From: Eledone cirrhosa
Taxonomy: Eukaryota
Length of the DNA: 64,000 nt
Assembly: GCA_964016885.1 (NCBI GenBank)
Contig: OZ024746.1
Location: 17,608,001-17,672,000 of the forward strand
Reading direction: 5' to 3'
In this document: piece by piece, positions 6,651 to 60,813 of the stretch
Layout of the letters: every line of letters begins with the position of its first letter
Numbering within the stretch: the first letter of the stretch is position 1
Position numbers and translations under genes: made by a program
The notes under the pieces: generated by a model
What the model saw: only the letters and a program-made list of their open reading frames with translations
Told to the model about the DNA's origin: nothing
The model's database searches: none

Positions 6651-6898
6651 CTTTGTTATATATATATATATATATATATATATTTCGTTTCTGAATTTGT
6701 TTAGCAAGATTCTTTATCTGAAATCGTGTGTTGAAACCGATATTGTTATACTTTGGGAGGGTCATGTTGCCAATAAGAAACACACGCACCAGTTGCTTTC
6801 ACTTCAATTTAATTTATTATATATTTATAAATTTACAAATTTATAAATTTCTGGTTGGTTGGTTGGTTCCACAACCAGATAGTTGTTTATATATATAT

Positions 6899-6943
6899 AG
6901 TCATAGTTCTTTCGTCACACACTCTGTGACCTCTTCAGTGACT
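6899..6943 (-). ncRNA. Minimal hammerhead ribozyme motif (mirror copy)
   Basis: Reverse complement of 7185-7229 in the left arm. Confidence 0.7.
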
Positions 6944-7184
6944 GGGGATTTCTTTCTTCGTTTCTGTGCCTTTCCTTTCTTCTATCCTACGCCATTTTGT
7001 TTGTGTGTGGGTTGCGTGCTCAGTTTGCGCATGCGCCACATCCGGGTGTCTGTGTGTGTTTGTGACAAACACACACAGACACCCGGATGTGGCGCATGCG
7101 CAAACTGAGCACGCAACCCACACACAAACAAAATGGCGTAGGATAGAAGAAAGGAAAGGCACAGAAACGAAGAAAGAAATCCCC

Positions 7185-7229
7185 AGTCACTGAAGAGGTC
7201 ACAGAGTGTGTGACGAAAGAACTATGACT
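7185..7229 (+). ncRNA. Minimal type-I hammerhead ribozyme motif
   Basis: AGTCA-CTGAAGA-g-GTCACA-gagtg-TGTGAC-GAAA-G-aa-C-TA-TGACT: stem I AGUCA/UGACU, stem II 6 bp, stem III 2 bp. Confidence 0.72.
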
Positions 7230-7380
7230 ATATATATATAAACAACTATCTGGTTGTGGAACCAACCAACCAACCAGAAATTTATAAATTTGTAAATTTA
7301 TAAATATATAATAAATTAAATTGAAGTGAAAGCAACTGGTGCGTGTGTTTCTTATTGGCAACATGACCCTCCCAAAGTAT

Positions 7381-7420
<40 letters not shown>

Positions 7421-13289: not shown

Positions 13290-14370
13290 GGTTTCTAATT
13301 TAGGCACAAGGCCAGCAATTTGGTGGGTGGGAGAAATCGACTAAATTGAGCCCAGTACATGACTGGTATTTTATCGACTCTGTGGAAGGATGAAAAGCAA
13401 AGTTGACGTTGGCGGGAATTAATAATTATGATGGTAATGACGATGATGATGATTTCATACATTGGAACAAAGCCACACATTTTGGATGAAGAGAATAGTC
13501 GTGCAATTCGACCCCAGTATGTTACTGGTACACCGGAGGGATGAAAGGCAAAGTTGACATCAGCAGGATTTGAACTCAGGTTGTACAGAAACTTAATTAA
13601 ATACCACAAAGCATTTAGTTGAACACTCTACTGTTTAGTTGAGTACTCTACCATTTAGTTGAACACTCTACTGTTTAGTTGAGTACTCTACCATTTAGTT
13701 GAACACTCTACTGTTTAGTTGAGTACTCTACCATTTAGTTGAACACTCTACTGTTTAGTTGAACTCTCTACCATTTAGTTGAACACTCTACTGTTTAGTT
13801 GAACTCTACCATTTAGTTGAGAACTCTACTCTTTAGCTGAGTACTCTACCATTTAGTTGAGTACTCTACTCTTTAGTTGAACACTCTACTGTTTAGTTGA
13901 ACTCTACCATTTAGTTGAGTACTCTACTCTTTAGCTGAGTACTCTACCATTTAGTTGAGTACTCTACTCTTTAGTTGAACTCTACCATTTAGTTGAGAAC
14001 TCTACTGTTTAGTTGAACACTCTACTGTTTAGTTGAACTCTACCATTTAGTTGAGTACTCTACCGGTTAGTTGAGCGCTCTACCATTTAGTTGAGTACTC
14101 TACCGGTTAGTTGAGCGCTCTACCAGTTAGTTGAGTGCTACCATTTCTGCCATTTAACTGCTCTTTAGTGTAAATAATAATAATAATCATAATAATACTA
14201 ATAATGGTTTCTTATATAGGCACAAGGCCAGCAATTTGGGAGGAGGAGGAAGTCGATTAAATCGACCCAGTGCATTACTGGTACTTTATTTTATCGACCC
14301 CGTAAGGATGAAAGGCAAAGTTAACCTTGGCGGGATTTGAACTCAGAACATAGAGAACTGGAACAACTAA
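13290..14370 (-). mobile_element. SINE family 1 cluster containing an internal minisatellite
   Basis: Three copies; the middle one is expanded by a ~20-bp tandem array. Confidence 0.75.
13613..14145. repeat. Minisatellite, 18-20 bp unit
   Basis: tttagttga(a/g)(c/t)actctac(ca/tg). Confidence 0.95.
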
Positions 14371-14467
14371 TAATAATTATAATAATTATCATTATTATTA
14401 TTTTTAACGATATTTGGAAATGAAGCATTCAGGTTTACAATTTGTCTTAAGAAGTACACAAAGAATG

Positions 14468-15022
14468 ATAATACCAGTTATAACTTAAGGGATGGCAACT
14501 GAAATAATACCAGTTATAACTTGGTTGATGGCAACTGAAATAATACCAGTTATAACTTGGTTGATGGCAACTGAAATAATACCAGTTATAATTTGGGTGA
14601 TGGCAACTGAAATAATACCAGTTATAACTTGGTTGATGGCAACTGAAATAATACCAGTTATAACTTGGGTGATGGCAACTGTAATAATACCAGTTATAAC
14701 TTAAGGGATGGCAACTGAAATAATACCAGTTATAACTTGGGTGATGGCAACTGAAATAATACCAGTTATAACTTGAGTGATGGCAACTGTAATAATACCA
14801 GTTATAACTTAAGGGATGGCAACTGAAATAATACCAGTTATAACTTAAGGGATGGCAACTGAAATAATACCAGTTATAACTTAAGGGATGGCAACTGAAA
14901 TAATACCAGTTATAACTTAAGGGATGGCAACTGAAATAATACCAGTTATAACTTAAGGGATGGCAACTGAAATAATACCAGTTATAACTTGGTGATGGCA
15001 ACTGTAATAATACTAGTTCTAA
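14468..15022. repeat. Minisatellite, 30 bp unit
   Basis: gatggcaactgaaataataccagttataacttaagg, ~18 copies. Confidence 0.95.
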
Positions 15023-15239
15023 CTGGATACCATATAAATTCTGAACTACAGGTAAAGAATCATCTAGACTAGGACTCCAGCGTGCCTGACAGTATAAATC
15101 ATACAGAAGACTACCTTACTGGCCATGGGGCTCCCTATTATAGGGAAGGTACTGATGTAGTCTATCTTAACTGTAGCCTTATAATGTAACCAATGACATC
15201 TATTGTCCTGTCTAACAGCGCACTCACTAATGGGTACAG

Positions 15240-21468: not shown

Positions 21469-21540
21469 TTATACATTTCCATAAGCTTGGAATCGGTCGA
21501 TGTATTCCATGACAGCTGTGTGGCAAAACTTAAATTGGTC
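21469..21540 (-). CDS. RPTP terminal coding exon
   Basis: ttccag|[23 protein letters not shown]; typical last PTP helix (xQYxFCY-like). Confidence 0.9.
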   Translation of the reverse strand, partial: DQFKFCHTAVMEYIDRFQAYGNV

Positions 21541-22428
21541 CTGGAAATAGAAAAAAAAAAAATTAAATTAAAAAAGAAAATTAAAAATAGAAGTAAAAAT
21601 AAAAACAAACTGTAAAGAAAATTTGAGTAAGGGGATAAAGATGGAATAGACGCACTGTATGTCCTTCAGTAGACTAAACCCTATGCGTAAGATGGCGCTG
21701 CCACAACCACGTTGACCATCCACTGGACATAGAAATATCATTCCTTGAAGCAAATCGGCCTAGTACTTCAAAAGTTAAAAGAAGCCTAGTATTTGTACAC
21801 AGACAGATACACACACAAAATCGATTTTTCGGCCCCAATATCGTTTTTGTTCAAAACCTGCTCTGGTATATAAGCAACATGTGTGTCAAATTTGGTTGAA
21901 ATCGGCCTAGTACTTCAAAAGTTAAAAGGAGCCTAGTATTTGTACACAGACAGACACACACACACAGACCAACTTGCTTTTATATATATAGATATACATA
22001 TAAATTTTGAGTATATGTTGGTTGTTTACCGACACCTCAGTATGCAGATTGGAGCACTCGACGAAGTACGCAGGTTGGTTTGTTTACTCCGGAGTAATGT
22101 AAAATAAAATAAGTAACTCAAATATGTAAAATTTGGCTTTGTTTATTATAAATTCTCTGCTATATATATTTCGGTGACAGCTATTATTGGCTGTGACCTC
22201 TTCAGGCAGTCCGAATTGGTGTGGAAAAGACAGGTACACATGTTGTTGAAGTGTGTTCCACTCTGTCAATACATCGATATGTTCAGCTCAACACACCCAG
22301 GAGCTGGACATATCGATGTATTGACAGAGTGGAACACACTTCAACAACATGTGTACCTGTCTTTTCCACACCAATTCGGATTGCCTGAAGAGGTCACAGT
22401 CAATAATAGCTGTCACCGAAATATAATA

Positions 22429-22480
<52 letters not shown>

Positions 22481-25400
22481 CATATACATACATATACATA
22501 TAGATATATATACATATACATACATATATATATATATATACATAATATACATATATATATCCATATATATATATATATCAGCATCATCATTTTACGTCCG
22601 CTTTTCCCTGCTTGCAAGAGTGGGACGAGTCCTCTTCAACACAACATCTCCATTTATCACAGTCCTTCGTCATCTCCTCTGTGAGCTTCAACAATCTCTA
22701 TATATATATACACGTTATATACTTTGACCATGGTAGTTCGTGTTTTCTTTTCTTCGAGATTTGAAATAGTTGTATAGGATTATCATCATTCATCATCATT
22801 TCATTTTACGTCCGCTTTTCCCTGCTTGCAAGGGTGGGATAGGAACTGATTCTGGCTTGATTTCTGGCTTCATTTACAGTGAGTGGTGGGTGCTTTTTTG
22901 CCGTGGCACCTCCACGACCACTTTGCAGTGGAATGATAGGGGCCCAAGTCCCTATTATCTCATTTCTACAGCTGAGTAAACTGGAGCAATGTGAAATAAA
23001 GTGTCTTGCTCAAGGAAACAACACATCACCCGGTCTGAGAATTGAACTCACAACCTTTCGATTGCAAGGCCAATGCTCTAACCACTAAGCCATGTTCCTC
23101 CATAGTATAGGTATAATAACTAATGCAACATATTTAAAAATTCTGATTGCTTTTTTCCTGTTATATGTATTGCATTATATAACTATTTTGTTTTTCTGTT
23201 ATATTCTTCTATAAGTGTAATCTGGGATGGGTTTTTTTCAAATCTAACTTCCATTGAGCTTTTATAGAATAACTAAATCAAAATGTTATTTTTATTTTGA
23301 TATATATATATATATAGGGTGGGTAAAATTCCCGAGATCCATGGATGAGTTCTCTCCAGCAGTCTCTGTCCCTCATCATCGCTGCCATGTCCTGCGTCTC
23401 CAAGAGACCGGTGTCTGTCCTTAGGGCATCAACATATGTCAACCCCAGTCTCCCTCTTCTATACATATATATCCTCATCATCATTGTTTAACGTCCATTT
23501 TCCATGCTAGCATGGGTAGGACGGGCAGTCCCTTTCTGAGAGATCTGGTTGGAGAACCATGTATCGCTCATGCAGGGCTGATTTTGGCCTGGTTTCTATG
23601 GCTGGATGCCCTTCCTAACGACAACCGCATTTACAGTGTGTGATGGGTGCTTTTGGTCATGTCGCCATCACGACCACTTTATAGCAGGGGCTGGGTACTT
23701 TTTGTCGAGTCGCCATCATGACTACTTTACAGTGTGGGTTGGAGGCTTCACTGGATATATACTTCAGTTTGTCCTATATATATATATATATGCACACACA
23801 CACACACATGTACGTACACACACACACACATGTACACATACGCAAACACACACACACATATATATATATATATAAACCCTCACCTCTGTATAACCCTATT
23901 TATAAACCTCTATAAAATAGAATCCCACAGTTTAACACTCATTCATGTCCCCATTCAGACTGGTTTCCTAGTAACAAGATCAATCAGAATACTTGATGTC
24001 ATTAACCTGTTTCTGATGTCTTTGTAAATAATTGTTGATAATGTCCCTGTATTTCATCTTTGTTGTTATTTAGCAGTCTCTATAAGGGTTTAACAGGGAT
24101 TAGAAGAATGGTTTAATGGACTAGAAGAGGGGTTTTAAGAGGGTATAGCGAAAAGGCGAATGAGAGAGAGGGAACTGAAAGTTCTTCGTTTTATAGGGTT
24201 CTGCCGGAAGTGATAAAAAGGGTTCTATCACCCAAACGGGAAGCAACTCCAACTACTTCCCGTCTAGAGAGCGTTACTCCATTGGTGATGTGAGTGTCAC
24301 AAGGGAGGCAACTCCTGCTACTAGGGACTAAACGAAGGGTCTAACTGGGCCTAGAGGAAGGGTTTAAGAGGGATTATAGGAGGGGTTTAAGAGGGACTAG
24401 ATGAGGGGTTTAACAGGGACCATAAGGAGCACCAGCCTTAGAAACTCTGGAAAAGATCATGAGTACTTCTCTGCCATCATCTCTGACTAAACACGAAAAA
24501 AAGAAATAAAACAACATTATTCGAATAGTTGTCCTTCCTTATTTAAGACAATGGAATGTGATTTGAAAGAGAACTTAGCTGCTATTTCTTACAAGTTGAG
24601 GGAGCATGTATTGCATGTTGGAGCATCTATTGTACTTGGGAGCATATTTTGTATGTGATGGTGCACCTATTGTATGTGGTGGTGCATCTATTGTATGTGG
24701 TGGTGCACCTATTGTATGTGGTGATGCACCTATTGTAAGTGGTGGTGCATCTATTGTATGTGGTGGTGCACCTATTGTATGTGGTGGTGCACCTATTGTA
24801 TGTGGTGGTGCATCTATTGTATGTGGTGGTGCACCTATTGTATGTGGTGGTGCACCTATTGTATGTGGTGGTGCATCTATTGTATGTGGTGGTGCACCTA
24901 TTGTATGTGGTGGTGCATCTATTGTATGTGGTGGTGCACCTATTGTATGTGGTGGTGCATCTATTGTATGTGATGGTGTATCTATTGTATGTGGTGGTGT
25001 ATCTATTGTATGTGGTGGTGCACCTATTGTATGTGGTGGTGCATCTATTGTATGTGGTGGTGCACCTATTGTATGTGGTGGTGTATCTATTGTATGTGGT
25101 GGTGCACCTATTGTAAGTGGTGGTGCATCTATTGTATGTGGTGGTGCACCTATTGTATGTGGTGGTGCACCTATTGTATGTGGTGGTGCATCTATTGTAT
25201 GTGGTGGTGCACCTATTGTATGTGGTGGTGCACCTATTGTATGTGGTGGTGCATCTATTGTATGTGGTGGTGCACCTATTGTATGTGGTGGTGCATCTAT
25301 TGTATGTGGTGGTGCATCTATTGTATGTGATGGTGTATCTATTGTATGTGATGGTGCATCTATTGTATGTGGTGGTGCACCTATTGTATGTGGTGGTGCA

Positions 25401-27132
25401 TCTATTGTATGTGGTGGTGTACCTATTGTATGTGGTGGTGCATCTATTGTATGTGGTGGTGCACCTATTGTATGTGGTGGTGCATCTATTGTATGTGATG
25501 GTGCATCTATTGTATGTGGTGGTGCACCTATTGTATGTGGTGGTGCATCTATTGTATGTGGTGGTGCACCTATTGTATGTGGTGGTGCATCTATTGTATG
25601 TGGTGGTGCACCTATTGTATGTGGTGGTGCATATATTGTATGTGATGGTGTATCTATTGTATGTGGTGGTGCATCTATTGTATGTGGCGTTGCACCTATT
25701 GTATGTGGTGGTGCATCTATTGTATGTGGTGGTGCACCTATTGTATGTGGTGGTGCATCTATTGTATGTGGTGGTGCACCTATTGTATGTGGTGGTGCAT
25801 CTATTGTATGTGGTGGTGCATCTATTGTATGTGGTGGTGCACCTATTGTATGTGGTGGTGCATCTATTGTATGTGGTGGTGCACCTATTGTATGTGGTGG
25901 TGCACCTATTGTATGTGGTGGTGCACCTATTGTATGTGGTGGTGCACCTATTGTATGTGGTGGTGCACCTATTGTATGTGGTGGTGCATCTATTGTATGT
26001 GGTGGTGTATCTATTGTATGTGGTGGTGCATCTATTGTATGTGGTGGTGCACCTATTGTATGTGGTGGTGCATCTATTGTATGTGGTGGTGCATCTATTG
26101 TATGTGGTGGTGCATATATTTATGCGATGGTGCATCTATTGTATGTGATGGTGCACCTATTGTATGTGATGGTGCACCTATTGTACATGGTGGTGCACCT
26201 ATTGTATGTGGTGGTGCATCTATTGTATGCGATGGTGCATCTATTGTATGTGATGGTGCACCTATTGTATGTGATGGTGCACCTATTGTACATGGTGGTG
26301 CACCTATTGTATGTGGTGGTGCATCTATTTATGCGATGGTGCATCTATTGTATGTGATGGTGCACCTATTGTATGTGATGGTGCACCTATTGTACATGGT
26401 GGTGCACCTATTGTATGTGGTGGTGCATCTATTGTATGTGGTGGTGCATCTATTGTATGTGATGGTGCATCTATTGTAAGTGGTGGTGCACCTATTGTAT
26501 GTGATGGTGCATCTATTGTATGTGATGGTGCACCTATTGTATGTGGTGGTGCATCTATTGTATGTGATGGTGCATCTATTGTATGTGATGGTGCACCTAT
26601 TGTATGTGGTGGTGCATCTATTGTATGTGATGGTGCAGGATGTGTTGTTTACTAAGTGAAAAAGGTGGGACAGATTTTTGCTTTCATTCCATTCATAACA
26701 GCACATTTAATTAACATTAACTTCCTATATAGACAATATTAATTGCTTGATAATAAAGCCACCAACAATGTTAGAGATCAATAAATCAATATACTTCAAT
26801 GTTGGATATCAATAATAGCTCCATTCAGAATATTAAAGGTGAAGGTGGTGGTGGTGATTGTAGATATAAGTATTTATATATAAATAAATATAGGTGTCTA
26901 TTTATACAAACAGGAAATGTATGTATGTATGGTGTATGTATGTATGTATGTATGTATGTATGTATGTATGGTGTATGTATGTATGTATGGTATATGTATG
27001 TATGTATGGTGTATGCATGAATGTGGGTGTGTGTATTCTTACCCACAGCCACAAATATATACATATATATACACACACACACATATATATATGTGTATAT
27101 ATATATATACACATACACACACACACACACAC

Positions 27133-27167
<35 letters not shown>

Positions 27168-30100
27168 TATATATATATATATATATGAAAAGTATTAATA
27201 ACACATACAACAGAAGATGAAGATATAATCAGAGTTGGTATGTGAACAATAAATATTAATTGATTTCTTAATAGATCGATTTATTGATTGATATATGGGC
27301 AGTTGAAAGACATTAAAATGGCTTAGAGACAGAAAGGAGTTTTTATAAATAACAAATAAAATCAAACAAAACACACTAGAACTATGAAAGTTTTTCAATA
27401 TACATTTAATATATTATTAACACCATTGTGTTGATAATATTTTGAAGACTGGGTATTTGGATTCATTTGTGTCATGTTAACTCTCATCATTCAGTAGTTA
27501 TTTAGCAGAAAACTAATGTAAAGGTTTAAAGTTTTTACTGTGGTGCAGTCATAATGCCGCTTTGTATTTTTCAAGAATGTCTTATTAATGTGATTTTATG
27601 TGATTTGATAATTCAAATGTTTATAGTATCGTTAGTAGTGGACAGATTGTTGTGAAAATTTGCAGTAAACTAAAGATATTGGTATAGTCAAAGTACCGTT
27701 TGATATTTTTCAACAATATCTTGTTAATATGATATCATGTGGTACAGGATGTTAAGAGTTAATAATTGTTTCTACTTTAGGCACAAGGCCAGCAATTACC
27801 CAGTGCATTACTGGTACTTTATTTTATCGACCCCGTAAGGATGAAAGGCAAAATCAACCTCGACGGGATTTGAACTCAGACCGTAAAGGGACGTAACTAT
27901 GCTGGAAAGCATGGCGTCCGACTCTCTACCGATACTGCCAATCCACCGCCGTTAAGAGTTAATAATGTGTATTAATTTCCTACTAAAGACATGTGGCTTA
28001 GTGAATGGGTGTTGAACTTATGTTTGTAAGGTCATCAGTTCAATTCCCATATTACATGGACTATTGAGTCCTTAAGCAAAATTTGAAGACCTAGTGTGTC
28101 CTTGAGCAAGATTTGAGGGCCTATTGTACAGACATAAGATGTACCACTCATAACCAGCTCTGTCCAGACACAAGATATTGCTCTGCTTATTTTCCAAACA
28201 CTATCTAGAATTGAGGTGTCATGGAATTAAAGAGCAAAAATATTTATATTAACCTAAAAATCGTCCATCATAATTTTATGTAAGAACATTTGTTAAGTTA
28301 TGTCCCAAACACCAGCTAAATAACGAGGAAGTTAATTATATCATTAAATACCTCCAAATTTTTGATTATTTTCAAAATTACTTGAAAATCATAGGCCAGT
28401 GTCTTTCATTAGAAATATGGTGATACAACAATTGCAGTGGCATAGTTAGAGTGTGTGCCATTCAGAGAAGAGTGTGCCACTCAGGGTAGAGTGTGTGTCA
28501 CCTAGGGTAGAGTGTGTGTCACCTAGGCTAGAGTGTGTGTCACCCATGCTAGAGTGTGTGTCACTCATGCTAGAGTGTGTGTCACCCAGGCTAGAGTGTG
28601 TGTTACCCAGAGTAGTGAGTGTGCCACTCAGGGCAGAGTATGTGTCATCCAGGGTAGAGTGTGTTACCCAGAGTAGTGAGTGTGCCACTCAGGGCAGAGT
28701 ATGTGTCACACAGGGTAGACCCAAAAATGAAATACCATTTTTACTTCACAGTAAAAAGAACAGAAATAGAGAAGGCATGAAAAGAAAAGAAATTAAAGGT
28801 TTGGCTGGTACTTACCAAATCTGTAAGAAGCTGTGGTCTCGGTAACTGCATAGTCCGTATTATATATGGAATATTTACAGTTCTTTCTTTTTGCAATAAC
28901 AACAGGGAAGAAAATACAACACAAAATAGTCCACTTCGTTCAGCACCATTCCTGTTAAAGAATAATATTACATTTAGAGATGTTATTCTTCTGAAATATT
29001 CTATAAGGGTAGATTTTCAAAATGTGTAACCTACAAATAATATCTTGACTTTAGTGTAGATATAACAGACAACAAGAAGTGTTTTAAGGCCAGTTTTCTT
29101 GCAGAAGTAACAGTTATCATTATAACAGTCTTATGGCATTTATATCTATGATGTAACTTATTCTAAATCATAAAAACACAGTTATGAGTGGACATTTCTA
29201 GCTTCAGCTAATATTCCAGGAGGATCGAATTTCAAACTTGTGTATGTGTATCCAGTTTACAATAGGTATACTATATCCCTGTGTGTTGTGGTACTGTGTA
29301 TATCCAGTTTACAATAGGTACACTGTATCCCTGTGCGTTGTGGTACTGTGTATATCCAGTTTACAATAGGTATACTGTATCCCTGTGTGTTGTAATTCTG
29401 TGTATATCCAGTTTACAATAGGTATACTATATCCCTGTGTGTTGTGGTACTGTGTATATCCAGTTTACAATAGGTATACTGTATCCCTGTGTGTTGTAAT
29501 TCTGTGTATATCCAGTTTACAATAGGTATACTGTATCCCTGTGTGTTGTAATACTGTGTATACCGAGTTTACAATAGGTATACTGTATCCCTGTGTGTTG
29601 TAATACTGTGTATACCGAGTTTACAATAGGTATACTGTATCCCTGTGTGTTGTAATACTGTGTATACCGAGTTTACAATAGGTATACTGTATTCCTGTGT
29701 GTTGTACAAGGCAACAAAAAGAGTTGGCACAAAGAAGGATGACTGGCCTTGAAATATTACCTGAAAAATGACTCCATTTAAAACAGTGAACAACCACACG
29801 GAGACCCAGGTTAAAGTGAACAACAATTTACTTACAAACAGTGAACAACCATTGGTGCTTTCGGGTTAGTCTGTGTTTGCTGAAGATGTTGTTTAATTTC
29901 TTCAATCATGTGTAAAAATGATACAGTATTGTTTGGTACTGCAGATGTTGCTGGCCATGATGTGTATTGGTACTGCTTCACACTCAGTTGTTTGCCCTGC
30001 AGTAAATATATAATAATAATAATAATGGTTTCTGATTTAGGCACAAGGCCAACAATTTTTTGGGGAAAGGAAAGTCGATTAAATTGATCCCAGTGTGTGA

Positions 30101-33100
30101 CTGGTACTTTATTTTATCAACTCCATAAGGATGAAAGGCAAAGCTAACCTCAGCAAGATTTGAACTCAAAAAATAAAGCACTGGAACAAACACTGCAAAG
30201 CATCTGTCAGCTGTTTTAACAATTCTGCCAATCTGCTGCCATATTAATTACTCAAATAATAATAATAACTATCTGGAAAAACCTCAACATAAATTAAGGA
30301 CAGATATGAAGAGTATGGAAGGATGTTAATAGGAGAAAGGGCAAGATTGCACCTCATCATAGACACCGGGTTGTGGTCTTCACTTAACTGAAAAACATCC
30401 AACAAAATATTTGCCATTCCACTACTCCTGGACTGGTTTTTATATTATTTAACCCCTGAAAAGATGAACGACAAAGTTGACCATGGCAGAATTTGAACCC
30501 AGAATACAGAGAGTTGGTACAAATATGAGGTCTTTAATCAAACAGTCTAACAACATCTTAAAGACCAATCATCATCATTATCATCATTATTGTTTAATCT
30601 CTATTTTCAATGTGTGCATGGGTTGGATGGTTGTCATGTACTGAGGCCTGATTGGTCAGGTGACTAGGTCCTGCTTGTACGCCTTGCTTTGGCTTGGCTT
30701 CTCTAGCTGGATGTCCTTCCTAACGCCAACCACTTTACAGTATGTACTGAGAGCATTTTATCATGATGTCAGCACTACAAACTTACAGGATGGATTGAGT
30801 GGTTTTCGTCATGGCCGCAGCACTACACCCTCACAGGGTGGACTGGATGCTTTTATCATGGCACCAATGCTATCACATTACAGGGTGGACTAGGTGCTTT
30901 GGTCATGGCACCAGCACTACCTCATTACAACACTAGTGAGCTCAGAGTATTTGGTCCTGCTAGGGTGTGGTGGGTGGATTGAAGTAGTGTTTAAAACATT
31001 ATCAAACAAAGAACAGTTCCTTTTCCAATTTGAATGTGAAATTTAACAAACCGTCTCTGAATTTTGTATGAACAATATTCTTTCCATAAAGTCTGTCTTC
31101 TCTTCTGCCTTACTGCTATGGACTATTATATGTCCAAACTCAATTTCACCATCATCCTTCCAATATTTACAGCAGGTCTGCAAAATTATTAAAAATAAAA
31201 TAAAAAAAAACAAACACATTTTGCTAATTAATAAATTAAGGGGCAATATATACAATAAGGATGAAATGTGAATGTGAATCTAGTGATGAAATGTGAATCT
31301 AGTGATGAAATGTGAATCTAGTATTGAAATGTGAATCTAGTGATGAAATGTTAATCTTTACTACCATGTGGTCAACAAAGTGGAGCAAAACTCCTAAAAA
31401 CCACAATAAATCATTTTCTGTAACTCCTGATAATTATATAAGTTTTTAAAGTCTAGCAGCAATCTGTAAAGTAAGAATTGTAAATGGTGAAATTGTAACT
31501 CACTTCATCCATAGAATCATCACTATTCAACATCACAATTGTGCTACTTTGGATATCACAAACCATCTGCCAAAAATCTTCAATAGTTTCCTTCATTGGC
31601 ATCTGTGTAGCTATATAATTGCGGGGATTTTCATGACTCTGTAATTGAAATGGAAGAAAATATAAACATAAACCCACTGACTAGAATTTTTAAAAATCAA
31701 GATAAAAAAAAAATCTTCTAATTTAGATCCAAGTCAAAGTGTCAGATAGAATATTCTGGTCATCTGGTTCCTACAGCCTCACGATAACAAGTCACTACGC
31801 TCTTCCATCTTTCTCTGTCTCTAGCAAGGATTGGCTCTTGAAACCAGTTTGTGCCACACCTGTGCAGGTCATCTTTTAGGGTGGATCTCCAGGTTTTCTT
31901 TGGCCTACCCCCTTGGTCTTTTCCCAGCAGCTGGCAAACACAACATTGCATTTCTTGCTGGTATATTGTCTTCTATTCATATGACATACTCTGCTAGTAC
32001 AATGTACTGCCTGGATCAGAAATGGAACCCACAACTTTATGATCATGATTACTACAACCTAACTAAAAGACAAGGGGTTGGAAGTTTGTATCTTGTTTTT
32101 ACATTTTATAGACAGACAAGTGTCAGAGAGGGCAGGTGGCTGTAAAACATTTGCCTCAAATCCTCATGTCCAACCCATGCCAACATGGAGGATGAGGAGG
32201 AGGAGGAGAGGAGGAGGGGGGAGAGGAGAAAAAAGCAAAAAAAAACAAAAACAGTATAAATATAAGAAATCAGATATACAATTACAGGTAGATAAACCGC
32301 ATTGATATATCGTGGCTGGCCATCTGGTGCAGGCTTTAGATAGGGGCGATACAAGTCACCTGAAATGTTTAAAAAAAGAAAGTGTTTTGATTATAAATAA
32401 TCAAATTTGTAATTTTAATGTTCTACTTGACAGAAAACTGTTGTGATAGTTGATATATCACCTCAATAGATGGCATGTTACCTCTGTGGTAGGTATGTTA
32501 CCGCAGTGGTAGGTATGTTACCTCAGTGGTAGGTATGTTACCTCAGTGGCAGGTATGTTACTTCAATAGAAGGTATGTTACCTCATTGGTAGGTATGTTA
32601 CCTCAGTGGTAGGTATGTTACCTCAGTGGTAGGTATGTTACCTCAGTGGTAGGTATGTTACCTCAGTGGTAGGTATGTCACCTCAATAGATGGCATGTTA
32701 CCTCTGTGGTAGGTATGTTACCTCAGTGGTAGGTATGTTACCTCAGTGGTAGGTATGTTACCTCAGTGGCAGGTATGTTACTTCAATAGAAGGTATGTTA
32801 CCTCAGTGGTAGGTATGTTACCTCAGTGGTAGGTATCTTACCTCAGTGGCAGGTATGTTACCTCAGTGGCAGGTATGTTACCTCAGTTGTAGGTACGTTA
32901 CCTCTGTTGTAGATATGTTACCTCAATGGTAGGTATGTTACCTCAGTGGTAGGTATGTTACCCCAATAGAAGGTATGTTACCTCAGTGGTAGGTTTGTTA
33001 CCTCAGTGGTAGGTATGTTACCTCAGTGGAAGGTATATTACCTCAGTGGTAGGTATATTACCTCAGTGGAAGGTATGTTACCTCATTGGTAGGTATGTTA

Positions 33101-36100
33101 CCTCATTGGTAGGTATGTTACCTCAGTGGTAGGTATGTTACCTCAGTGGTAGGTATGTTACCTCATTGGTAGGTATGTTACCTCATTGGTAGGTATGTTA
33201 CCTCAGTGGTAGGTATGTTACCTCAGTGGTAGGTATGTTACCTCAGTGGTAGGTATGTTACCTCAGTGGTAGGTATGTTACCTCAGTGGTAGGTATGTTA
33301 CCTCAATAGTAAATATGTTACCTCATAAGTAGGTATGTTACCTCAATAGTAGGTATGTTACCTCAGTGGTAGGTATGTTACCTCAGTGGTAGGTATGTTA
33401 CCTCAGTGGTAGGTATATACACAATACAATTTAGTCAAAATAATAATAAGCTACTTACTAGCAAGAATATTTTTCACACGCGTTTTATTCAAATTATTTT
33501 TCAATTTTGCCGTTTCTAAAAATTCTTGAGATGTCTGAGGATATTCAAGTTCTTGTAGTTCCTGAGTGGAAATAAAAGGTTGACAAATTTCATGTAGTCT
33601 GAGAGAAAAAGGCAATGGCTGTGATGTCAGGGAGGGGCTGTGTCTATAGTCCTTTTCAGGGCCTCTGAGACTGGTAAGAGAGAAATGGACAGTGTGTATG
33701 ACCCTTTCTTGGGCCACCAAAAGTGCTGAGAGGGATGGGGTAGTACCTATGACCTGCTTCAGGGTTTCCAAAAGTACTGAGAAGGAGGAGTAGTGTGTAT
33801 GACCCTTTCTAGGGTCTCCAAGGGTGGTGAAAGGGAGGAATGAAGGTACTGTAAACAAGTGACTTGGTCTGAATGATTGCATTAACACACCTACTACCAA
33901 CAACAGCAGTTGCCATGTTAAGGTTAAATGAAAGTCTTAATGTAATACATCTACCACCAACACCAACAGTAGCTGCCATATTAAGAGTTAAGTGAAAGTT
34001 GATGTTGAAACAAACCTGAAATTGTTGCTGTAGAAGTGTTTTGGAAGAAACATTCTCCTCATTTTCTTCATTCAACTTCTGATAAAAATTGGGGAAATTC
34101 TCAATGGTTACTTGTGTTTGCTGTAAAAATATACTTTCCACAAGAGCAAAGTAGATGAATTCATACTGATCCTAAAGAAAGAAAGAAAGAATGTGTTATA
34201 CCTTCATTTAACCCTTTAATTACCATGTTATTAATGAAAGACACTATGTCATTAACCCTTTCATTACCATGTTTCCAATGAAAGACACTGTCTATATATT
34301 AACCCTTTCATTACCAAGTTTCTAATGAAAGACACTGTCTATATATTAACCCTTTCATTACCATGTTTCCAATGAAAGACACTGTTTATATCATTAACCC
34401 TTTCATTGCCATGTTTCTAATGAAAGACACTGTCTATATATTAACCCTTTCATTACCATGTTTCTAATGAAAGACACTGTCTATATATTAACCCTTTCAT
34501 TGCCATGTTCTAATGAAAGACACTGTTTATATCATTAACCCTTTCATTACCATGTTTCTAATGAAAGACACTGTCTATATATTAACCCTTTCATTACCAT
34601 GTTTCTAATGAAAGACACTCTATATATTAACCCTTTCATTGCCATGTTCTAATGAAAGACACTGTCTATATATTAACCCTTTCATTACCATGTTTCTAAT
34701 GAAAGACACTGTCTATATATTAACCCTTTCATTACCATGTTCTAATGAAAGACACTGTCTATATATTAACCCTTTCATTGCCATGTTCTAATGAAAGACA
34801 CTGTCTATATATTAACCCTTTCATTACCATGTTTCTAATGAAAGACACTGTCTATATATTAACCCTTTCATTACCATGTTTCCAATGAAAGACACTGTCT
34901 ATATATTAACCCTTTCAATACCATGTTTCTAATGAAAGACACTGTCTATATATTAACCCTTTCATTGCCATGTTTCTAATGAAAGACACTGTTTATATCA
35001 TTAACCCTTTCATTGCCATGTTTCTAATGAAAGACACTGTCTATATATTAACCCTTTCATTACCATGTTTCTAATGAAAGACACTGTCTATATATTAACC
35101 CTTTCATTGCCATGTTCTAATGAAAGACACTGTTTATATCATTAACCCTTTCATTACCATGTTTCTAATGAAAGACACTGTCTATATATTAACCCTTTCA
35201 TTACCATGTTTCTAATGAAAGACACTGTCTATATATTAACCCTTTCATTGCCATGTTCTAATGAAAGACACTGTCTATATATTAACCCTTTCATTACCAT
35301 GTTTCTAATGAAAGACACTGTCTATATATTTACCCTTTCATTACCATGTTCTAATGAAAGACACTGTCTATATATTAACCCTTTCATTACCATGTTGCTA
35401 ATGAAAGACACTGTCTATATATTAACCCTTTCATTACCATGTTTCTAATGAAAGACACTGTTTATATCATTAACCCTTTCATTGCCATGTTTCTAATGAA
35501 AGACACTGTCTATATATTAACCCTTTCATTGCCATGCTTCTAATGAAAGACACTGTTTATATCATTAACCCTTTCATTGCCATGTTTCTAATGAAAGACA
35601 CTGTCTATATATTAACCCTTTCATTACCATGTTTCTAATGAAAGACACTGTCTATATATTAACCCTTTCATTGCCATGTTCTAATGAAAGACACTGTTTA
35701 TATCATTAACCCTTTCATTGCCATGTTTCTAATGAAAGACACTGTCTATATATTAACCCTTTCATTACCATGTTTCTAATGAAAGACACTGTCTATATAT
35801 TAACCCTTTCATTGCCATGTTCTAATGAAAGACACTGTTTATATCATTAACCCTTTCATTGCCATGTTTCTAATGAAAGACACTGTCTATATATTAACCC
35901 TTTCATTACCATGTTTCTAATGAAAGACACTGTCTATATATTAACCCTTTCATTACCATGTTTCTAATGAAAGACACTGTCTATATATTAACCCTTTCTT
36001 TACCACGTTTCTAATGAAAGGTACTGCCTATGTCATTAACCCTTTCATTGCCGTGTTTCTAATGAAAGGTACTGCTTATGGTTTTCAAATCATTTTGAAA

Positions 36101-39100
36101 CTAATCAAAAATTTGAAATATTTAGTAATGTAAGCTGTTCTCCTACATTGTCCAGACATATATCATTATGGTAGCGGTGGCAGTGGTCTGTGTACATTAT
36201 ATATATATATACATGTATGCATATATGTCTCTAAGACATGACAACTTCCCTACTAGCAAAGAAATCAGATGTTAAGCCATGATGACAATGATGATAATGA
36301 TAAAGATAATGATGATGATGATGATTAAGATGATGAGTTTTAATATATAAAGTTGAAATACCTCAATCTGTACCATGTTCAGTCTGGCTTTTCTCATTCG
36401 ATTTACACACCCAAATATATCTATGGTGCCTTGGTGTAAAGCTTCGTCCATTAAGAAATCAAGGGCAATAAATGTGCCACTCCTGCCAATTCCAGCACTA
36501 AAAGAAAGGCAACAAAAATATATAAAATGGGGAGTAAATAAAAATAACTAACAAGCAAATAAAACTAATTCAAAAATATTTTGCCTCAATCTGGCAAAGG
36601 TTTGTGTTTTAACTTTTAACATTTCTCAAATGATTAGCAGAAAGTATTCAAAAATGGCTTTGTTAAATTCAAATGTTTATAGTACCTTTATTAGTGGACA
36701 GATTGTTGTGACCATAGCCCCAGTTCAGGAACTATCAAGAATCCCTAGACTAAGCCCTAAAAAAAGAAAAGTAATGAAATAATATTTACCTGCAGTGTAC
36801 TACAAGGGGACCGGTTTCTGCTTCAGTATCATTACGAATTTTCATCATGAAGTTAACCAATCCAGTCGGGGTTGGGGGAACTCCATGATCTGACCATGAG
36901 GTAAAGTGAAATTGATCCAGTTTTCTCACTGGTTCTTCACCCTAATATAGAAAAGAAAGAGATGTAGATTTTAGAGATGATAGCTGCTGCCTCCACTGCT
37001 ACCATCACCACCACTTCTTCCACTTCCATCACTACCATCAATACCAACACCACAACTACTCCTACCACCACCACCACCACCACTGCCACCACCATCATTT
37101 GACTTCAGTAGCAGATGGCCATCCCCTATTGCCAATCCACCCTCTATAGCTAATCTGCCTCCTATTATCATTCTACCCCCTATTGCTACTCTTATGAGGT
37201 AGACTCAATATGTTCCTTTACTCTCAATAAAGACCCCTCTGTTGTAGACATTCAGGTAAGGTCTCTAGTTTGAGGACCCCTTCCGTTCTTTTTCCTTTCC
37301 TGACAAAACAATAAAAATAATCAGCTGCCTGTTGCCAAGTGTAAAAAAATAACATCTGTTTTTCCATGTTGGCATGGGTCAGACAGATTGTCAAAGACCA
37401 AATCAATGTTTCATTTGTGTTACTGTCCTACCCTCTCAGGTGGGACAAAAGGCATGTCTTATTTACATACATTCCACTGTTGGCATAGTTTCTACAGCTG
37501 AATGTCATCCCTAATGCCAATCACTTTACAGAGTGTATTGAGTGCATTTTCTTGTGACCCCCAGCAGTAAAAACTTTGTCATGTCCTTCACATAACTGAA
37601 GCATCCTCTCAACCCCTTTTGGCATGGCTTCTATAGTTGGATGCTCTTCCTAAAAGCAATCACTTTACCAAGTGTACTGGATACATTATATCATGGCACC
37701 ATCACTAAAAAGATTATTATGTCCCCAAAACAAGTGGAGATTCTTCTCAAACGTTTTTGTCATGGCTTCTATGTCTGGATGCCCTTCTTAATACCAACCC
37801 CCTTATAGAGCTCAACACTTTATCTGACACGGATCCTACAGCTGGATACCCTTCCTCACATCAACCACTTTACAGACTGTACTGGGTGCATTTAATTTTG
37901 ACCCCAGCACTACATGTTGCCAATCCACTGCCAAAATTGAAAATCCCCATTCAAAATTTAAAAACAGAATCAGTAAACAATTTCAATATAAAATATCAAT
38001 ACTTTGGTGTTTGACACAGGAAGTTGTGTCAAATGTATTATAAGAAGGACTGGGATTGTATTTCATACCTTTTGTAAAAGAAATGACCTGATGGTAAAAT
38101 CACTGAAGTTTTGTTCTCGAATACATCGGATCTTTAAATCTCCAGAAACTTTCACCTCTTTATCTGGCCAATACTTTTCACATTTTGTCTGGAAATTGCA
38201 AAATAAATATAATTATTTTATCAATTATAAAGAAACAAGTATTTTTGTTAAAACGGGCAAATAAAATGTTATATACTCTAAAAAGATAAAGAAGGGTCTT
38301 AGACCCAAAATATTAGGACAGGTAAATAAAATAACAGGTAACACACCAACATCTTTATTGCCTTCAATTTATTCCAAAATCTACCGTCCATTCAGCCTTG
38401 TTGTAGCCTTCAACTAACTACTTTATACACTAACACAATGCTTCAAGCAAACTACAACATGCTCTTATTTTTGTTAATATTTGAAAGGGAAATGGAAGAG
38501 ATTCTAGATATTATGCTCTCAGAGCACCCTCCTCCATTGCTAAGATAGCAGAAGCTATCAACCACTTCTTTGTGACTGGAATAGGCTTACATCACTGGTT
38601 ATCTTTCTCTCGATTACCCCTGAGCATCCTCTACAAACAAAGTCTTCCTATCCTGTTAGCTTACTTGTTTTCTCACTAAATCTCTTGTGTGCCCCAAATT
38701 TACATTGTGTACTGCGTATGGAGTTTAAGCCTACTCCCTTTCTACATACTGAGCAGGGCCACTTCCCTGAAGGAATCAGGGTCCTATCTTCTCTTCTACT
38801 AACAAGCACTTTAATTTTGGCCTTTTGATTCAAATTCTGTTTCCATAGTCGGGACTTATTTTCTAGGTGTTTAATGGAGTTGGCTATAAGAGAAGTTCCC
38901 ATGGGCAGTTGGTCTTAAACTCCTCTTTTATAGCCTGGAGAACTATAATGAACAACAGTGGGCTAAGAACCGAACCTTGATGAACTCCTACTTGTACCTT
39001 GAAACCCTCACTAAACTCATTTCCTACTCTCACATTGTTGACAGCTCCCTAGTAAATGACTCACACTGCTCTCACCAACCATTCTTCTACACCTAATTTC

Positions 39101-60201: not shown

Positions 60202-60813
60202 ATACTTTGGGAGGGTCATGTTGCCAATAAGAAACACATGCACCAGTTGCTTTCAATTCAATTTATTATAATAAATTTATAATAAATTTATAATAAATTT
60301 ATAAATTTCTGGTTGGTTGGTTGGTTCCACAACCAGATAGTTGTTTATATATTGTCATAGTTCTTTCGTCACACACTCTGTGACCTCTTCAGTGACTGGG
60401 GATTCCTTTCTTTGTTTTTGTGCCTCTCCTTTGTTCTGTCCTACGCCATTTTGTTTCTGAGAAACAAAATGGCGTAGGCGTAGGACAGAACAAAGGAGAG
60501 GCACAAAAACAAAGAAAGGAATCCCCAGTCACTGAAGAGGTCACAGAGTGTGTGACGAAAGAACTATGACAATATATAAACAACTATCTGGTTGTGGAAC
60601 CAACCAACCAACCAGAAATTTATAAATTTATAAATTTATTATAAATTTATTATAATAAATTGAAGTGAAAGCAACTGGTGCGTGTGTTTCTTATTGGCAA
60701 CATGACCCTCCCAAAGTATAACAATATCGGTTTCAACACACGATTTCAGATAAAGAATCTTGGCTAAACAAATTCAGAAACGAAATATATATATATATGT
60801 GTGTGTGTGTGTA

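Follow-up and report, generated by a model that had tools for sequence, protein, structure and literature searches.

Hammerhead ribozymes in the pseudo-LTRs of Penelope-like retrotransposable elements (PLEs) are already described, as are opposite-strand pairs of such motifs, inverted truncated copies, tails and (TA)n targets, and the supplement of PMC8557442 already lists, for an octopus, a Hydra-clade family that has a hammerhead. As far as that paper's account of the clade goes, Hydra elements have RWK, DKT and CxCx5C motifs, no CCHH, and CxxC and CxH; they are under 3 kb long, and the described PLE tail measures 30–40 bp. The short-stem-III hammerheads of PLEs (PMC4209133; Lunse et al., via PMC6765202) combine a long stem II, a stem I of 4–5 bp, G10.1–C11.1 and a palindromic stem III region with thousands of dispersed copies and opposite-strand pairs 100–700 bp apart, all of which the motif reported here shares. 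Metazoan PLE hammerheads of this type are described as showing no cleavage as monomers and low cleavage as dimers (PMC4209133). For the PLE of the anole, PMC11167929 reports that cleavage needs the element's protein and is dispensable for insertion, and that no reads end at the cut site.

Among other known ribozymes, the HDV-like ribozyme of CPEB3 and the intronic hammerheads of amniotes also lie sense in introns of protein-coding genes; they are described as conserved across species, and that of CPEB3 as active alone. Our motif differs from these host-conserved ribozymes in that it is a transposon copy among thousands and that it is predicted to be masked. With the non-LTR retrozymes (bioRxiv 10.64898/2026.07.22.740005), which are reported to be under-represented yet still frequent in frog introns, it shares a non-coding, PLE-related sequence and a type I hammerhead. 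However, retrozymes, as presented there, are head-to-tail tandem units, whereas this locus holds a head-to-head truncated pair from an ORF-bearing family; with no head-to-tail monomers at the locus, a retrozyme was ruled out. What is new here is another family within the known PLE hammerhead type.

The window (the whole 64-kb stretch of DNA analysed) contains the following features around this motif, each with its basis.

21469..21540, minus strand: last coding exon of a tyrosine phosphatase gene, 23 codons and stop (splice phase; the Pfam match of the preceding exon ends at profile position 221 of 234)
21541..28815, minus strand: last coding-region intron of this gene, 7,275 nt, GT-AG, phase 0 (splice sites, Pfam)
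28816..28951, minus strand: phosphatase exon before the last intron (Pfam, splice sites)
22001..22290, minus strand: direct 5'-truncated arm of a Penelope-like element, its last ~190 nt (pseudo-LTR) and tail (genome copies)
22001..22103, minus strand: tail of ~100 nt, the start of the next tandem unit (longer copies)
22142..22147, minus strand: AATAAA of the element, outside the predicted hairpin (sequence)
22157..22209, minus strand: type I short-stem-III hammerhead (sequence, descriptor, copy comparison)
22209-22206/22160-22157, minus strand: hammerhead stem I, CUGC/GCAG, 4 bp (sequence)
22205-22199, minus strand: hammerhead core CUGAAGA (sequence)
22198-22190/22181-22173, minus strand: hammerhead stem II, nine positions, G-C closed (sequence and fold)
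22195/22176, minus strand: C.C mismatch at stem II position 4 (fold)
22172-22169, minus strand: hammerhead GAAA, with GAA at 22172-22170 and a final A that also opens the palindrome (sequence)
22169-22162, minus strand: 8-nt all-AU palindrome AUAUAUAU, the stem III region (sequence)
22161, minus strand: A17, end of the AUA triplet, predicted scission 22161/22160 (sequence)
22290..22425, plus strand: inverted head-to-head arm, ending inside stem III (mirror comparison)
22290-22300, no strand: hairpin loop, itself family sequence (mirror comparison)
22426..22578, no strand: (TA)n-rich microsatellite joined to the inverted arm (sequence)

Pfam Y_phosphatase (PF00102) matches three upstream minus-strand exons (three of the five peptides submitted), and the peptide of the last exon alone has no Pfam match. 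These matches and the GT-AG intron agree with the sequence-only reading, which had placed the motif sense in the last phosphatase intron, about 620 nt before the last exon; the distance from the predicted cut to the 3' splice site is 620 nt. The intron is AT-rich and contains four sense AATAAA, that of the element included. The phosphatase signature HCLNGAERSG spans an exon junction (28816-29900, minus strand) and is presumably the degenerate form typical of the second domains of receptor phosphatases. Large minisatellites lie at 24490-26650 (21-nt unit), 32326-33500 (20), 34250-36240 (47) and 14360-15080 (36), the first of which shares the last phosphatase intron with the hammerhead.

From sequence and descriptor, the minus-strand motif at 22209-22157 is a type I hammerhead, sense to the phosphatase pre-mRNA: CUGANGA, GAAA and the UH triplet, which the type I core requires, are all present. 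The canonical core, the 4-bp stem I and the AATAAA behind the motif thus stand as first read. Stem II is indeed closed by G-C, although it is not the clean 8-bp helix that had been proposed, since it has nine positions with C.C at the fourth. Likewise, the stem III region is self-complementary as claimed, but it stays open in the minimum free energy (MFE) fold of the monomer, in which forcing 2 bp costs 2.7 kcal/mol; between two copies of the motif, the palindrome is predicted to form an 8-bp duplex of -3.2 kcal/mol. A monomer with no stable stem III fits, on these folding predictions, a dimer-type hammerhead variant. A9 is followed by a G that pairs with the C preceding GAAA, which leaves no unpaired base between positions 9 and 10.1. 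In this, in its short palindromic stem III in place of none, and in its fixed C.C mismatch, the motif differs from the minimal PLE hammerheads; the unpaired base is common, not universal, in the lists published in PMC4209133 and PMC8557442. The motif is the sole complete match of the descriptor in the 64-kb window. Matches were found in 0 of 100 simulated windows with the strict descriptor and in 4 of 100 with the loose one, and its occurrence exceeds chance. The z-score of its fold is only -1.9, and the Rfam hammerhead models gave no match for it at the gathering threshold.

Judged from sequence, the motif is a remnant of the 3' pseudo-LTR of a Hydra-clade PLE, the clade being assigned from motifs, not from a tree. 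In longer copies, ~1.2 kb of untranslated sequence lies upstream, preceded by a broken ORF. Of the loci matched with the ORF end as query, 20 were analysed, and in 16 of these 20 ORF-anchored loci a same-strand arm match follows downstream of the ORF end, via the 3' UTR, so that the hammerhead sits in the pseudo-LTR, sense to the ORF. The order at the fetched loci is reverse transcriptase (RT), linker, endonuclease, UTR and arm. The motifs RMRWK/R, DKT, YRDD, CNCRTPTLC, YIGAT, CxxCLSE and CRH were recognized in the copies, RWK/R and DKT being in frame at L071, L073 and L083; a stretch from CNCx5C to YIG with one Cys between (no CCHH) occurs in 7 of 20 broken copies; raw regex tallies of the motifs include chance matches. 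Motifs and order agree with a single ORF encoding an RT and then a GIY-YIG-type endonuclease, all copies seen being broken. By eye, the ORF pieces align with the Hydra-1_Obim proteins (PMC8557442 supplement), and the Atlas neighbours at 0.95 are RT-named eukaryotic clusters, in one of which 61% of members have HTH_animal and 17% RVT_1. In Pfam, no RT or GIY-YIG domain was recognized in the two ORF pieces submitted, and a PDB sequence search with the ORF gave nothing relevant (two ribosomal-protein rows, E 0.55 and 0.94).

The copies also show the PLE traits of 5' truncation, an inverted truncated copy and a tail; the palindromic stem III region is able to pair between two copies, as in PLE hammerheads with short stem III; and the flanks of 132 arms are mostly (TA)n, as in Hydra-type insertion. 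However, the ~100-nt tail and the ~1.2-kb 3' UTR are both longer than those described for PLEs and Hydra elements, which counts against the assignment. Naiad, the clade first guessed, is marked by an N-terminal endonuclease and by having no canonical hammerhead, and was ruled out by the C-terminal endonuclease and the presence of the hammerhead. To Hydra-1_Obim, as presented in PMC8557442, the element is alike in its C-terminal endonuclease, RWK, DKT and CxCx5C linker, the lack of CCHH, CxxC and CxH around a conserved E and N, (TA)n insertion, a hammerhead lying sense close to the 3' end, copies that are inverted and 5'-truncated, and a tail. It differs in C.C at stem II position 4 and in the length of its 3' UTR and tail, and the hammerhead stems listed for Hydra-1_Obim are unlike those here, which makes this a separate family; among the Hydra motifs listed there, stem III mostly measures 9–10 nt, against 8 nt here. 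At L034, L041, L042 and L044, long ORF pieces of further Hydra-like PLE families occur within a few kb of family copies, and the Hydra clade seems diverse in this genome.

A 290-nt arm query gave 2,858 candidates in the 3.0-Gb genome, and the 40 that were scored have 91–95% identity, self-match aside. The exact 53-mer of the motif occurs 35 times, and a looser pattern of core and palindrome has 9,900 matches (reversed control, 0). Queries without motif and tail found 88 arms, of which 81 made up the copy-quality set after the window's two and five short ones were dropped. The four CTGC/GCAG pairs are kept in 73/81, 74/81, 74/81 and 64/81 copies, and the conservation of this pairing, proposed beforehand as a check, was thereby confirmed. 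The core is intact in 64 of the 81 and stem I fully paired in 59. Called the best-formed hammerhead, the motif keeps this rank in the window, but not in the family, where 27 of 81 copies are as well formed, most with a 5-bp stem I.

With subfamily sites kept, the core diverges by 1.7% and the flank by 5.5%; with these sites removed, the values are 1.7% and 2.7% (stems, 3.6–4.6%), and post-insertion selection on the genomic copies is not significant (p = 0.14). Subfamily sites occupy 10 of 68 flank positions and none of the 41 positions of core, stems and loop III (p = 0.013). We read this as selection on source elements, then roughly neutral decay of the copies. All four clear private changes of the direct arm in the window lie outside the motif; since the motif sequence is identical in 5 of the 14 subfamily copies as well, nothing marks the window copy as special.

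Sister families B (15 loci), C (10) and D (3), with 28 motifs, keep core and palindrome and change the stems on both sides: stem I, starting from CUGC/GCAG, turns into A-U pairs throughout, and at several positions of stem II both partners of the pair differ. Stems I and II are thus backed by covariation between sister families, three related families representing few independent events. The C.C mismatch is present in 26 of the 28 sister-family motifs and in 9,194 of the 9,900 genome motifs, G-C being found at that pair in 102. Of the 13 loci of families C and D, 3 have Hydra-like ORF pieces nearby, and in family C, too, AATAAA directly follows the motif. Families C and D (e.g. L149, L154 and L169) share the AU palindrome and keep C.C; stem I of family D is all A-U, and a further hammerhead variant occurs among the genome pattern matches.

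At the locus itself, 22301-22425 mirrors 22289-22165 with 3 mismatches in 125. The inverted arm has no complete hammerhead, because it ends inside stem III, as first read; the mirror position of its terminus at 22425 is 22165, 4–5 nt short of the predicted cut. A complete plus-strand hammerhead at 22385 was not found in the window, nor was there, past the microsatellite, the rest of the inverted arm, as would be expected had TA repeats expanded within stem III. The ~160-nt tail noted behind the motif does extend to 22001, but it is not all tail: the first ~55–60 nt are the element's end and the rest is the PLE tail, because in longer copies the last ~100 nt (22103-22001) run on into the ORF start, as at L071, L073 and L083. 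A rare G at stem II position 4 is found in both arms of four other head-to-head pairs (C4:145938392/145938634, C7:46857542/46857668, C23:19191613/19191736 and C2:110004624/110004842), which suggests that the two arms of a pair derive from a single template or have undergone gene conversion with each other. On one side of the pair, 21640-21990 is a repeat that starts at a TA tract and has an internally duplicated part as well as short microsatellites, and a similar start follows several family arms ending at position 146; we take this repeat to resemble Helentron/DINE-like elements. On the other side, 22580-22690, beside the microsatellite, is a short fragment like the 3' end of the LINE family in L031 and L037.

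When both arms are present, 122 of 125 arm pairs form in the MFE prediction, the probability of stem I is about 1e-38, and the penalty for the ribozyme fold is 53.9–54.9 kcal/mol in three contexts. When the inverted arm is left out, stem I has a probability of 0.27 and the stem II pairs 0.66–0.96. The capacity to fold in the pre-mRNA context, by which a domesticated ribozyme would be recognized, was thus not seen in the equilibrium prediction. The duplex would be able to start ~80 nt before the motif is transcribed, which should also give it a kinetic advantage. With the ribozyme predicted to be paired to the inverted arm ahead of it, the host transcript is unlikely to be cleaved. Such a duplex lock could be loosened by RNA editing or by helicases. 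A head-to-head arm lies within 600 nt upstream in 35 of the 88 copies and covers the core in 17, both arms of one pair often being counted and the window's two included.

A second family with a hammerhead core forms head-to-head pairs in the window at 6938-/7190+ and 60392-/60532+ (6740-7388 and ~60390-60560); its stem II has 6 bp and is preceded by an unpaired G. The former pair is likely to be young or homogenised, because its 324-nt arms are 100% complementary, and antisense masking should apply to this family also.

Our reading, to which we give a probability of about 0.86, is that the motif is a Hydra-clade PLE hammerhead in a truncated head-to-head pair in the phosphatase intron, and that it is likely a silent passenger, given the pairing predicted in the pre-mRNA between it and the inverted arm upstream. 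In the element RNA, tandem motifs would pair via the AU palindrome and cut, perhaps with the help of the element's protein. Insertion into a (TA)n tract presumably produced the direct arm with its tail and the inverted arm, the latter probably stopping at an internal TA run or being cut back to it afterwards. Host transcription would then yield the antisense arm first; the duplex would zip from 22289 through the 5' strand of stem I, the core and stem II; and, with no partner hammerhead nearby, the intron would be spliced uncut.

The pair might act on the host without cleavage, the 125-bp hairpin being edited or causing decay, or the element's AATAAA now and then causing polyadenylation within the intron, with loss of the last 23 codons. 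The hairpin is predicted to be near-perfect, and the AATAAA is sense, lies outside it and has a counterpart in family C; however, with four sense AATAAA in an AT-rich intron, and with such pairs frequent in the family so that any effect would be generic, we regard this as improbable.

Less probable again is that a 5' fragment left by ribozyme cleavage served as the template of the inverted arm, whose end would then record cleavage. The position of this end just before the predicted cut agrees with this, the TA run blurring the junction, and the sequence-only reading had suggested that cleavage or the AT tract defines the end of the duplication. Of 176 distinct matches in 146 loci, matches within 40 nt of a locus edge being excluded, we kept the 132 arms that cover the region upstream of the motif and excluded the other 44; a few rows may be duplicated loci. 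In arm coordinates, in which the cut site is 130/131, the 3' ends fall at 271–290 (62 arms), 181–200 (52), 135–160 (7), 120–134 (3), 75–119 (3), 161–180 (3) and 201–270 (2), and those of the 88 motif-independent arms, in the same order of bins, number 29, 42, 6, 3, 3, 3 and 2. Thus 114 of 132 arms end 50–70 or 140–160 nt downstream of the cut site. Two of the three BLAST ends at 120–134 resume family sequence after an internal deletion, and the sole arm that truly ends inside stem III is the inverted arm of the window. With only 1 of 132 arms stopping there, cleavage does not define the element's end, the AT tract being the part of that suggestion that stands, and the end at 22425 is therefore a one-off at an internal TA run. 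A (TA)n junction is, moreover, expected from TA microhomology or deletion, like the family's other ends, and the anole PLE, according to PMC11167929, uses mainly unprocessed RNA as template.

The least probable explanation is a functional intronic ribozyme, as first proposed, which would cut the nascent phosphatase pre-mRNA and lower the mature mRNA as a CPEB3-like switch: core and stems are intact, sense, unmutated and close to the 3' splice site, and the intronic Cpeb3 ribozyme (PMC10919898) is a precedent, but in its context the ribozyme fold is predicted to be disfavoured by about 54 kcal/mol, stem III requires a partner and the descriptor finds no second complete motif in the window, motifs of this type are described as inactive as monomers (PMC4209133), the 53-mer has 35 exact copies in the genome, and there is no sign of locus-specific conservation.

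The preferred reading of a masked passenger leaves room for a wider and rather doubtful proposal, namely that the ~10,000 motifs are a distinct hammerhead subclass in which the C.C mismatch and the AU palindrome are selected, through contact with a protein or a dimer partner, and in which the inverted arm is an antisense lock in either direction of read-through, so that such copies would survive in introns from which sense copies lacking the lock are purged. In the literature covered, with Lunse et al. as cited in PMC6765202, we found no description of an antisense lock of a PLE hammerhead, nor of the C.C mismatch, the term mismatch being absent from the main text of two of the papers; the figures or supplement of PMC4209133 may show the mismatch.

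The locus itself is of little weight, being one of thousands of transposon remnants. The lesson is that intact-looking intronic ribozymes need to be folded in their own pre-mRNA context. With covarying stems in three sister families, a C.C mismatch that is fixed, and numerous copies with and without the lock, the family is a large natural test set for what PLE hammerheads do.
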